The notes beneath the pieces were generated by a model that had not been told where the DNA came from, did not search any database, and saw only the letters and a program-made list of their open reading frames with translations. Below, in pieces: positions 52,131 through 54,137 of a stretch of 64,000 bases of DNA (the first letter of the stretch is position 1; every line of letters starts with the position of its first letter). A program made the translations under genes and the position numbers. The stretch is taken from NCBI GenBank assembly GCA_945870825.1, contig CAMBTM010000004.1, positions 2,594-66,593 on the forward strand, in the 5' to 3' direction. Origin of the DNA: Rhizobium sp. Q54. GTDB lineage: Bacteria; Pseudomonadota; Alphaproteobacteria; UBA7879; VGCX01.

Positions 52131-53102
52131 CTACCTATAAAATTGATATTGAGTTTGGTTGTCTTCCCCCGTTTTGATAAGGATTTTATGCACAACTCCC
52201 TTTAATAAATCTCGACTGGCTGTGGCTGTTGAAATTTGTGAATGTAATTTCAGATAATCTTTTCTTAAGAAGGATCTCTCCTGAAAATGGTTTTTTGCAT
52301 ACGTTAGCCGTGCTTCAGAGGTATTCACCGTAAAAACACAACGGGATTCATAAACTTTTAGAGCTTCCAAAATTTGTTTCAGGGAAAATGCGATAAAAAG
52401 CGTGGAATCTCTTCTTTTATCGCAAAGACTTAATGTCTCATAATATTGCTGTTGATACTGTCGAATCATTTCCTCTACAGAAATATAAGCAAAAAGAGGA
52501 TGTTCCTTCATCAACAATAATTGTTGCCATAGCCGACCCATGCGCCCATTCCCATCTTCAAACGGATGGATAAATTCTAGTTCATAATGGAAAATACACG
52601 CTTTTATGAGCCAAGGAATCTGATGGTCTTTCTTTAAATAGGTAAAAAGGTCTGCCATAAGGATTGGAACACGGGATGCTGGGGGTGGAAGATGGGTAAG
52701 GGCCTTGCCCTTAAAAATACCAACACCCCCTTGCCGCCATTGACCGGGACTTCCGACCAAGTCCTTCATAAGAAGGTGATGTACTTGCAGAAAGTCTTTA
52801 ATTTTTAAGGGATTAAAGGCATTCAACTGCCTATAAACATATAATGCGTTCGTAACCTCTTGAATATCTTTTTGGGGTGCGATCACGAGCTTGCCTTCCA
52901 ACAAAGTCTGAATTTGGTCATATGTTAAGGTATTACCTTCAATGGCAAGCGAAGATTGGATGGTTTTGATACTATTCTCTTTGCGAAGGTATAGGGGTGG
53001 CATATCTCCTTTGCTGCCAGAAAGGCGCCCTAGGAACCGCTGAATAGAGGCAACATAAGATAAAATCTCTGTCGTAATGGTATAAGGTGGCATATATGTC
53101 AT
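52131..53102 (-). CDS. Fic-family protein (class II, N-terminal inhibitory SxxxEG motif)
   Basis: Fic active-site motif HPFEDGNGRMGRL. Upstream inhibitory-helix motif SSLAIEGN. Confidence 0.85.
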   Translation of the reverse strand: MTYMPPYTITTEILSYVASIQRFLGRLSGSKGDMPPLYLRKENSIKTIQSSLAIEGNTLTYDQIQTLLEGKLVIAPQKDIQEVTNALYVYRQLNAFNPLKIKDFLQVHHLLMKDLVGSPGQWRQGGVGIFKGKALTHLPPPASRVPILMADLFTYLKKDHQIPWLIKACIFHYELEFIHPFEDGNGRMGRLWQQLLLMKEHPLFAYISVEEMIRQYQQQYYETLSLCDKRRDSTLFIAFSLKQILEALKVYESRCVFTVNTSEARLTYAKNHFQERSFLRKDYLKLHSQISTATASRDLLKGVVHKILIKTGEDNQTQYQFYR

Positions 53103-53141
53103 AAGATGATAGTATCATATGATGCTATCACTGGCAATTTG

Positions 53142-54137
53142 TTATCCCCCCATTAATCCCCCCATTAATCCCCCAATTTCATCCAAGGTATATCGTTGTT
53201 TCTGTAATTCTCGGATCTTAGCGCAACGCTCAATCTGATGACGATCATAGAGTTGGTATCCGGAAGGTGTTGTGGTGCTGACTTCAAGAAGCCCGATTTT
53301 TGTCCAGTATCGTAAGCTTGCCACAGATTCCTGTGTTTGTTTAGCAAGGTCCCCAATTTTTAACAAATGAGGTGAAAGATCTACAAGTGGTTTCTGGGTA
53401 AAGGCCTTGATATAGATCCCAAGAGACCTTAAAACAGCCGTTTCGATGACAGAAAAATAATCCTCCATAGATCCACCAAGTTGAGCTTTTTCAAGACTTT
53501 TAATATAACGAAGACGATCTTGGGGTCGAATAATCGCAGGTGGATACCCATGCTGCATCAATATTAAATTCATTATAATGCGTGCTGTGCGGCCATTTCC
53601 ATCAATAAAAGGATGAATCGTGACAATGTTATAGTGGGCTAAGGCTGCCTGTTTTACGGGATGATCCGTTGTCGCGGTAAAGTCTTGAATAAAGGTATCT
53701 AATAATGTGGGTAGTTTGAGATAATTTGGTAAAATAACCGGACTTCCAGAAATACGAACAGGTACAGAACGAATCACCCCTGCATGACTGTCATCAATGC
53801 CTTTGAGAATCATTTTATGAATGGAAAAAATGTCCTCTTTTAAAAATCCCTTCTTATGGACCATATGTTTCATCAATATTAAGGCATCGCGGTGGTTGAC
53901 GGCCTCTAGGTAGTCTTTGAGGGGTTTGCCACTGACTGTAAACCCCTTTTCTAATACCAACGCCGTTTCATGACGTGTTAATGTATTGCCTTCGATGGCA
54001 TTACTTGAATAGGTCAATTCAACCTCAAACCATTGCTCAAGATTGGCCAAAATATCCTGATTCAAGGGCCTCAAGGCATCCAGTTTACTTTTCATAAAAT
54101 CTAGTTTTTTAAAATCCATGATCCTAAAATAATCCAT
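53142..54137 (-). CDS. Fic-family protein (class II) fused to a C-terminal MerR-type HTH domain
   Basis: HPFIDGNGRTARI Fic motif and SSNAIEGN inhibitory motif. The C-terminal IGDLAKQTQESVASLRYWTKIGLL...GYQLYDRHQIERCAKIRELQKQRYTLDEI matches the MerR N-domain pattern. Ends in GGLMGGLMGG. Confidence 0.85.
   Translation of the reverse strand: MDYFRIMDFKKLDFMKSKLDALRPLNQDILANLEQWFEVELTYSSNAIEGNTLTRHETALVLEKGFTVSGKPLKDYLEAVNHRDALILMKHMVHKKGFLKEDIFSIHKMILKGIDDSHAGVIRSVPVRISGSPVILPNYLKLPTLLDTFIQDFTATTDHPVKQAALAHYNIVTIHPFIDGNGRTARIIMNLILMQHGYPPAIIRPQDRLRYIKSLEKAQLGGSMEDYFSVIETAVLRSLGIYIKAFTQKPLVDLSPHLLKIGDLAKQTQESVASLRYWTKIGLLEVSTTTPSGYQLYDRHQIERCAKIRELQKQRYTLDEIGGLMGGLMGG

Follow-up and report, generated by a model that had tools for sequence, protein, structure and literature searches.

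Two adjacent class-II Fic genes with C-terminal DNA-binding domains and predicted operators at their own promoters

The stretch of DNA analysed here, 64,000 nucleotides (nt) of contig CAMBTM010000004.1 from Rhizobium sp. Q54, hereafter the window, carries two intact Fic genes side by side on its minus strand. The upstream open reading frame (ORF), 53142–54137 at its maximal extent (331 amino acids (aa)), encodes the protein labelled FicM, and the downstream one, 52131–53102 (323 aa), encodes Fic2; the genes are co-oriented and separated by 39 nt. An earlier description made from the letters alone, the sequence-only reading, had placed two ORFs at these coordinates, and the ORF list matches it exactly. 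FicM is a FICD-like class-II Fic protein with a C-terminal MerR-type DNA-binding domain, and Fic2 is a class-II Fic protein with a C-terminal winged helix-turn-helix (HTH), in the architecture of SoFic and of Protein Data Bank (PDB) entry 4RGL. The earlier reading had credited FicM alone with an HTH; the one in Fic2, at residues 262–321, had been missed.

In FicM, Pfam recognises a Fic domain (4.8e-21) followed by MerR_1 (1.5e-13, residues 260–325) and MerR (1.5e-7), all above gathering scores. The catalytic motif, HPFIDGNGRTAR (53580–53615, minus strand), is of the HxFx(D/E)GNGRxxR type; across 29 family members P176, F177, D179, G180, N181, G182, R183, T184 and R186 are invariant and H175 is kept in at least 90%. 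Upstream in the protein lies the inhibitory motif SSNAIEGN (53985–54008, minus strand), which follows the pattern (S/T)xxxE(G/N), and here S45, N46, A47, E49, G50 and N51 are invariant in the same 29 members. The SNAIEG stretch, residues 45–50, is helical in the structure model, and the inhibitory helix of the family, TYxSNAIEGNTLT, is invariant or nearly so. Fic2 has the equivalent pair of motifs, HPFEDGNGRMGR and SSLAIEGN. The canonical Fic motif and the N-terminal SxxxEG motif that the sequence-only reading had reported for both proteins are thus confirmed by translation, and its class-II, self-inhibited assignment agrees with the position of the inhibitory motifs, N-terminal and in model helices, and with the intact catalytic motifs.

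The best solved relatives of the FicM Fic core are FICD (also called HYPE) and Caenorhabditis elegans FIC-1 (phmmer 2e-33 to 4.5e-32; Foldseek 7.5e-15, root-mean-square deviation 2.4–2.6 Å, ~32% identity), both stronger matches than any bacterial Fic structure, and all three share an inhibitory helix of the TxAIEGN type. FICD is a glutamate-dependent AMPylase and deAMPylase that is switched by dimerisation. It has a membrane anchor and a TPR domain and acts on BiP in the endoplasmic reticulum, whereas FicM has neither and carries a DNA-binding module instead. The match to FICD starts past the TPR region (chain residues 110–313), and FicM has ~25 residues before its inhibitory helix region.

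The MerR-type winged-helix module of FicM occupies 53175–53366 (minus strand), with the order β1-α1-α2-wing-α3-α4. An AlphaFold2 model built with 29 family members (pLDDT 84) folds residues 258–329 as β-α1-α2-β hairpin-α3-α4, which is the MerR DNA-binding fold; together with the two Pfam matches this bears out the MerR-type HTH that the sequence-only reading had seen at the protein's end and its expectation that the region would model as a MerR winged helix. The NCBIfam models for ZntR, CadR, MerR and CueR match FicM over their first ~68 positions only, the part that makes up the DNA-binding module, and PDB chains of MerR and CadR match at 2.7e-6 to 2.5e-5. This β1-α1-α2-wing-α3-α4 arrangement is common to MerR, CueR, ZntR, CadR and SoxR, but in those regulators the DNA-binding domain is N-terminal and is followed by the α5 coiled coil and an effector region, whereas the FicM module is C-terminal (258–321) and nothing lies C-terminal to α4; all 29 homologues stop a few residues past that helix. 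In the model, then, FicM is without the coiled-coil dimerisation helix and without an effector domain, and because only α1–α4 is present it does not count as an ordinary MerR-family regulator. The GGLMGGLMGG tail that had been reported after the HTH is indeed present, but it is the product of a 12-nt tandem repeat of 2.9 copies (53144–53178, minus strand; Tandem Repeats Finder), and it was found in no FicM homologue aligned.

Fic-MerR proteins are a large family, widespread in uncultured bacteria, and no rarity of the source genome. Among 5.8 billion clustered proteins, the best 120 relatives of FicM all carry Fic and MerR_1 (318–397 aa, 54–68% identity), and about 35 of the best 150 clusters, formed at 50% identity, cover the query through its MerR part. 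The full-length fusion is seen in one-genome-per-species contigs of Opitutales, Rickettsiales, Terrimicrobiaceae, Margulisiibacteriota, Bradymonadales, Saccharibacteria, Acidobacteriota, Nitrospirota, Planctomycetia, Gammaproteobacteria and others, in all cases from a metagenome-assembled genome, and in the searches made family members were recovered only from uncultured bacteria. The protein collection holds no sequence identical to FicM apart from one 236-aa fragment (P0001). The sequence-only reading had supposed that a Fic-MerR fusion was uncharacterised. For the MerR-type version this appears to stand, in that we found no paper on the fusion or on either operator described below in a literature search whose coverage left out most subscription journals; the coupling of Fic to DNA binding in general is already known from CccR, CbFic2 and SoFic.

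Upstream of FicM, a palindrome search combined with MAFFT alignment of the 250 nt preceding 19 non-redundant FicM-type genes reveals one shared 31-nt block (39 bits), with the consensus TTGAAA-ACCATTAAGTGAYACTT-TATGGT, or written in full TTGAAA ACCATTAAGTGATACTT TATGGT TT. The 19 loci come from Verrucomicrobiota, Alphaproteobacteria, Saccharibacteria, Acidobacteriota, Nitrospirota, Myxococcota, Margulisiibacteriota and others. We read the block as a −35 hexamer, a 17-nt spacer and a −10 hexamer (TATGGT or TATACT), and a dyad with the consensus AAACCATWAAGTG-N-CACTTWATGGTTT (~27 bp) traverses the spacer and enters the −10. In the window, the predicted promoter and operator is TGTTAA-AGTGTTAAGTGTCACTT-AATGGT-TT at 54138–54168 on the minus strand, identified from its inverted repeat and its alignment with 18 homologues, and it holds the perfect core palindrome TTAAGTG-N-CACTTAA at 54144–54158.

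The block is specific to these genes. Leave-one-out scores range from 24.6 to 44.7 bits, the best of 3000 random 240-nt windows reaching 15.8; the site in the window scores 34 bits, or 28.9 when it is omitted from the matrix, and three loci outside the matrix score 46.7 (L016), 44.2 (L167) and 39.1 (L166). Throughout 849 kb of fetched loci, every match of at least 20 bits sits immediately upstream of a FicM-type gene, and the 64-kb window contains this single site. Among 58 related FICD-like Fic genes without a MerR domain, none has such an operator, the highest score being 18.2 bits. The site is confined to MerR-bearing members and therefore travels with the DNA-binding domain. That FicM binds its own upstream DNA is thus a good prediction, with 54138–54168 as the candidate operator.

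An RNA hairpin was considered as the palindrome's role and rejected: the dyad overlaps the −35 and −10 and so precedes the likely transcript, changes in one half-site are not matched by compensating ones in the other, and the window has no Rfam match at gathering score. Independent variation of the half-sites, and the overlap with the promoter hexamers, fit a protein-binding site better. Three FicM loci from different phyla (L002 5968–5998, L003 4940–4970 and L004 5965–5995) carry a rearranged operator, AACCATAAC-TTTATGGTT-TATGGT, with TATGGTT duplicated and the dyad centre ~4–5 nt further left; their recognition helices show no matching change, and a comparison of recognition helices with operator variants across the FicM family gave no clear pattern of co-variation.

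The position of the block bears on where translation starts. At 14 of 24 FicM-type loci the first in-frame start lies 6–7 nt past the −10 hexamer, the spacing expected of a leaderless mRNA; others have a longer leader with a Shine–Dalgarno sequence. In the window, the first ATG (54137) is only 2 nt past the −10 equivalent and for that reason probably does not serve as the start. An AGGA precedes the seventh codon, ATG 54119; homologues align from this second methionine, which in the nearest of them falls opposite the initial methionine. The true start is probably here, and the FicM coding sequence would be 53142–54119 (minus strand). Many Fic-MerR entries in the databases open with MVY... or MLYG... 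(P0005, P0008, P0011, P0012, P0040, P0054, P0063, P0088 and P0103). These N termini are probably mis-called starts that translate the operator and −10, the true start probably being the next methionine (M-N/D-x-x-K-L). For P0008, from locus L166, the called ATG is the one within the operator's TATGG (region 2977–3010).

Fic2 belongs to a different family. Its Fic domain is recognised by Pfam at 1.6e-20. The inhibitory motif SSLAIEGN lies at 52932–52955 (minus strand), with L52, I54, E55, G56 and N57 invariant in 25 family members and SLAIEG (residues 51–56) helical in the model, and the catalytic motif, invariant in the family, lies at 52533–52568 (minus strand). The C-terminal region (52140–52319, minus strand) forms a conserved block, FSRKDY...ISTATASRDLL...G.KNQT.Y.F, in which STATASRDLL is the conserved recognition helix; the model places helices at 262–273, 280–286 and 292–304 and a β hairpin at 308–321, as in a three-helix winged HTH. 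The closest solved relative is Dde_2494 of Desulfovibrio desulfuricans G20 (4RGL), a structural-genomics entry that matches over residues 2–249 at 9.9e-72 and that Foldseek aligns at 38% identity over 330 columns; phmmer does not align the C-terminal domains, which have diverged too far. We found no functional study of this protein in the literature. The whole Fic2 model also aligns with CbFic2 (8CIL), SoFic (3EQX) and 7XUX, probably the CccR structure (330–365 columns for the four structures together, about 340–365 for SoFic and CbFic2). Family members of ~322 aa occur in Paracaedimonas, Rickettsia and many metagenome-assembled genomes (MAGs), the best relative being 61% identical.

The 39-nt gap between FicM and Fic2 is occupied by a promoter and a second kind of palindrome. 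The predicted Fic2 operator (53107–53130, minus strand) consists of two 11-bp palindromic boxes, TGATAGTATCA at 53107–53117 and TGATGCTATCA at 53120–53130, the former without mismatch to the consensus TGATAsTATCA and the latter with one; their starts are 13 nt apart and the pair abuts the start codon. Directly upstream of Fic2-type genes, both boxes, with at most one mismatch each, recur at the exact 13-nt spacing in 71 of 79 metagenome loci, and the other 8 have recognisable box variants; elsewhere in 439 kb only 11 boxes are found. The central base is C or G in any combination and all other bases are conserved, the 2-nt gap being AA, TA or TT. This conservation base by base, with the central base alone free, together with the blank Rfam search, led us to reject an RNA role. 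The in-frame start lies −1 to +5 nt past box 2 in 58 of the 71 loci, which leaves no room for a ribosome-binding site. A promoter scan finds a σ70-like promoter at 53109–53137 (minus strand), TTGCCA (53132–53137), 17 nt and TACTAT (53109–53114), with 9 of 12 matches and an extended TG, and the ATG follows 6 nt downstream of TACTAT, so that the gap reads TTGCCA-17 nt-TACTAT-6 nt-ATG and holds the 24-nt palindrome. The arrangement suggests that the Fic2 mRNA is leaderless, and the family-wide double palindrome strongly predicts that Fic2 binds at its own promoter. A lone viral contig (IMG/VR; L170 8844–8867) carries a perfect double box, TGATAGTATCA-AT-TGATACTATCA, with no Fic gene nearby; it may have arisen by chance or may serve some unrelated HTH protein as its operator.

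Adjacency, common orientation and the 39-nt gap might suggest that FicM and Fic2 form one functional pair or operon, FicM regulating Fic2 or the two forming a heteromer, within an effector island completed by the flanking secreted proteins; the sequence-only reading had proposed both the tandem and the island. The G+C content of the Fic region, 0.34–0.42 as against about 0.45–0.50 in the flanks, and the presence of other class-II Fic genes near the FicM homologues at L166 and L082 point the same way. The wider loci do not sustain either proposal, and we regard this arrangement as highly improbable. When Fic2, the RNase III-like protein encoded next to it, the 391-aa protein encoded upstream of FicM, hfq and ubiE were compared by tblastn with 80 FicM-type and 80 Fic2-type loci, no FicM-type locus had a Fic2-type gene and none of the 80 Fic2-type loci a MerR-bearing Fic, so that a conserved tandem was rejected; overall, the two families are paired in none of about 100 FicM-type or 80 Fic2-type loci. 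The window's other neighbours (RNase III-like, 391-aa, hfq and ubiE) co-occur in none of the Fic2-type loci, and no related locus of either type has an equivalent of the RNase III-like or the 391-aa gene. When 357 and 928 neighbouring ORFs were clustered all against all, no family turned up in as many as 3–4 loci for either Fic family. Each gene has its own promoter and operator, the gap being taken up by those specific to the Fic2 family, and cross-regulation was rejected too: the FicM matrix gives no hit in front of Fic2, and FicM is not preceded by any Fic2 box. A separate antitoxin gene is likewise missing, with no recurrent adjoining ORF of at least 50–70 aa in 20 + 80 loci; both proteins carry the inhibitory helix in cis.

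The surroundings of FicM homologues differ from locus to locus. One relative stands among ubiE, a gene for a 503-aa unknown protein, dut and mutS, a neighbourhood it has in common with the window, at a different insertion point (identities between the two are 64% for FicM, 59% for Dut and 53% for UbiE), and another accompanies an outer-membrane protein and AAA ATPases. At L166 and L167 the homologues lie among ParE/RHH, PIN and Phd/ParE modules and a TraG-like conjugation gene, and at L082 the homologue adjoins a gene for a TLC (ATP/ADP) translocase and DnaJ. Further Fic genes are found beside or 2.5 kb from FicM homologues: a class-II Fic_N-Fic gene of 374 aa at L166 1682–2806 and a DUF4172-Fic gene of 389 aa at L082 11488–12657. 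Fic modules may thus cluster in accessory islands with no fixed pairing. At L082 (8981–10171) the FicM gene converges on dnaJ with a 4-nt overlap, a single case that deserves mention only because FICD, the closest characterised enzyme, modifies an Hsp70. A phage or plasmid origin was rejected: among 2.9 million viral contigs the FicM operator is absent and the Fic2 double box occurs once, with no Fic gene, and no full-length fusion is found in 72,556 plasmid (PLSDB) or 50,697 phage (INPHARED) records.

We consider it likely that FicM and Fic2 are two independent single-gene modules, each a class-II Fic enzyme joined to its own DNA-binding domain and controlling itself through a palindrome in its own core promoter. 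This view is built on the domains, the intact catalytic and inhibitory motifs, the conservation of the operators, their strict co-occurrence with the DNA-binding domain and the absent conserved partner gene. FicM would dimerise through its Fic part, as FICD does, because its MerR module has no dimerisation helix and yet the site is a dyad. The dimer would bind the ~27-bp palindrome across the 17-bp spacer and −10 of its own promoter, repress transcription and keep the enzyme scarce, while the inhibitory glutamate in the N-terminal helix would block productive ATP binding. Some signal would release AMPylation of targets, possibly through a change of oligomeric state as in FICD, CbFic2 and SoFic. 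The same scheme would apply to Fic2, except that its winged HTH is of another kind and so is its operator, the two TGATAsTATCA boxes 13 bp apart at the start codon.

Three characterised proteins guide this view. CccR of Yersinia pseudotuberculosis is a class-II Fic protein with a C-terminal HTH whose dimer binds inverted repeats near its own −35 and −10 and represses; it is a type VI secretion system effector that AMPylates FtsZ, its enzymatic and regulatory activities are separable, and repression needs dimerisation (PMC9755527). With FicM and Fic2 it has in common the class-II Fic domain, the C-terminal HTH and palindromes at its own promoter, but its N terminus is of the DUF4172 type, its winged HTH is DeoR-like as opposed to a MerR module, and its operator is AGATAATCAT-N26-ATGATAATCT, as against a compact ~27-bp palindrome for FicM and two adjacent 11-bp boxes for Fic2. 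SoFic of Shewanella oneidensis (PDB 3EQX and 3ZCN) AMPylates EF-Tu and must be dimeric to bind the 100 bp immediately upstream of its own gene (bioRxiv 10.64898/2026.07.09.737422). In CbFic2 of Coxiella burnetii, the winged HTH binds DNA and DNA-induced dimerisation switches AMPylation to deAMPylation, which requires the inhibitory glutamate (PMC10628234). SoFic and CbFic2 resemble Fic2 in joining Fic to a C-terminal winged HTH; in these two proteins activity is governed by the monomer–dimer state and deAMPylation needs the inhibitory glutamate. The sequence identity is just 18–22%, however, and the window proteins have no Pfam DUF4172 or Fic_N match (for Fic2 none at E ≤ 0.1, although its model has an N-terminal helix at 11–29 and the SoFic profile aligns from residue 5); their targets, EF-Tu and histone H3, are not transferable, and FicM uses a different DNA-binding fold. 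By analogy with these three proteins, and from the operator data, FicM and Fic2 are most likely both autoregulated, self-inhibited AMP-transferases.

Likeness to MerR regulators raises the alternative that FicM is primarily a transcription factor, its Fic domain serving as a nucleotide or auto-AMPylation sensor in place of the MerR effector domain and its regulated genes lying elsewhere. Its DNA-binding module resembles those of metal-sensing MerR regulators, its palindrome sits between −35 and −10 as MerR operators do, and CccR affects other genes (PMC9755527). We think this quite unlikely. Neither the window nor any fetched locus has a site other than the one in the gene's own promoter, and the invariance of the catalytic and inhibitory residues argues for a working enzyme. 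The promoter geometry differs as well: the aligned FicM promoters have a 17-bp spacer, and promoters controlled by MerR regulators the over-long 19–20 bp needed for MerR-type activation, so that activation by DNA untwisting is not expected of FicM and occupancy of an optimally spaced promoter would more likely repress than activate.

A role outside the bacterium would be a further possibility, in which FicM or Fic2, or both, are host-targeted effectors of an intracellular bacterium and the DNA-binding domains direct them to host chromatin. The closest relatives do come from Holosporales- or Rickettsiales-like MAGs and amoeba symbionts (Paracaedimonas, Rickettsia), one relative adjoins the TLC translocase gene mentioned above, the FicM core is most like animal FICD, and CbFic2, proposed to act on histone H3, is a precedent (PMC10628234). 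We nevertheless judge it decidedly improbable, since both DNA-binding domains have matching conserved sites in their own bacterial σ70-type promoters, the families extend to Acidobacteriota, Nitrospirota, Planctomycetia and Myxococcota, which have no known intracellular lifestyle, and no secretion signal or secretion-system neighbour was seen.

What the autoregulated modules do for the cell is a separate matter, and a defence role would be compatible with the proposed mechanism. In a SoFic-like abortive-infection or toxin system, one polypeptide would combine a toxin (the Fic core), an antitoxin (the inhibitory helix) and an autorepressor (the HTH), released on phage attack. The PADLOC SoFic model matches Fic2 nearly end to end (residues 5–312, 3.2e-43), FicM matches the candidate defence family PDC-S04 (3.4e-27), and Sofic is reported to be toxic and phage-protective (PMC12249575); the homologues at L166 and L167 that keep company with toxin–antitoxin modules and a conjugation gene would also fit. 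The PADLOC matches, however, cover generic features of Fic proteins with a winged HTH and have no curated threshold, no small anti-toxin gene comparable to AS1 is conserved downstream, and one relative's FicM lies amid the housekeeping genes ubiE, dut and mutS. The near absence of the operators from viral contigs, and of the fusions from plasmid and phage records, says nothing for defence, and we hold the role to be possible but rather doubtful. The class-I FicTA systems (VbhTA, Fic-1–AntF) offer a parallel, with a Fic toxin curbed by a glutamate-bearing inhibitory helix and an autoregulated locus, but FicM and Fic2 carry the inhibitory helix and the DNA-binding domain in one polypeptide and no antitoxin gene is present or conserved.

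Several points weigh against self-control through a promoter palindrome. Binding, regulation, catalysis and dimerisation through the Fic domain are in both families predicted from sequence and models, and the direction of regulation, repression as opposed to activation, is deduced solely from the site position and the optimal 17-bp spacer. The FicM model is of a single chain and says nothing of how the geometry of a Fic dimer would fit the palindrome. In the window, the FicM −35 is poor (TGTTAA) and the left outer palindrome arm is degenerate; a divergent FicM homologue (L168) has only a degenerate site of 14.8 bits, and at L002, L003 and L004 the palindrome is in rearranged form. For most Fic2 loci the promoter assignment is uncertain, the TAsTAT of box 2 often lying too near the ATG to be a −10. 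The scan for further sites extended over the window and, at each locus, over the surrounding ~6 kb, and a larger regulon is possible.

A bolder version of the autoregulated-module model, which we regard as unlikely, would make Fic-MerR a portable cassette of toxin, antitoxin and repressor in one polypeptide, its dimeric state dependent on the occupancy of a single chromosomal operator. It would bring its own promoter and operator, often with a leaderless start, and a MerR module with no coiled coil would tie dimerisation to the operator, operator-bound dimers being inactive or deAMPylating and free monomers AMPylating. If this were true, enzyme activity would follow the number of protein molecules per operator copy or the state of the DNA, and Fic-MerR would be a bacterial counterpart of the FICD monomer–dimer switch, possibly a relative of its ancestor.

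Dual-function DNA-binding Fic enzymes have been recognised only recently, with CccR in 2022, CbFic2 in 2023 and SoFic in 2026, and one architecture is common to all three. The principle is known, then; what is new is the FICD-like family with its MerR-type domain and the pair of operators, and unrelated DNA-binding folds have been put to the same use at least twice. Exact operators are now predicted for both of these large, uncharacterised families, and the start-codon predictions would correct the annotated starts of many database entries. The Fic-MerR Fic core is, in the comparison with solved structures reported here, the most similar bacterial one to human FICD.

Elsewhere in the 64-kb window, which includes dnaA, dut, ubiE, hfq and a gene for an NtrC/NtrX-like regulator, no tRNA genes are found. 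This set of genes, like the nearest relatives of FicM and Fic2, points to an alphaproteobacterium of the Holosporales/Paracaedibacter kind. Divergent from FicM, the plus-strand gene at 54254–55429 encodes the 391-aa protein, with a signal-peptide-like N terminus and only weak glycosyl- or glycerophosphotransferase-like matches (Pfam Glyphos_transf 1.3e-3, below cut-off). On the other side, the RNase III-like gene (51175–52065, plus strand) encodes a 296-aa protein with a signal-peptide-like N terminus and sub-threshold RNase III matches (Pfam 2e-4, NCBIfam 2e-11), in which a 15-nt tandem repeat (51745–51791) encodes KKVPV three times. Between the convergent ends of this gene and Fic2, at 52062–52094, lies an AT-rich inverted repeat, ATAATATCTATTAT / ATAATATATATTAT, which may be a bidirectional terminator.

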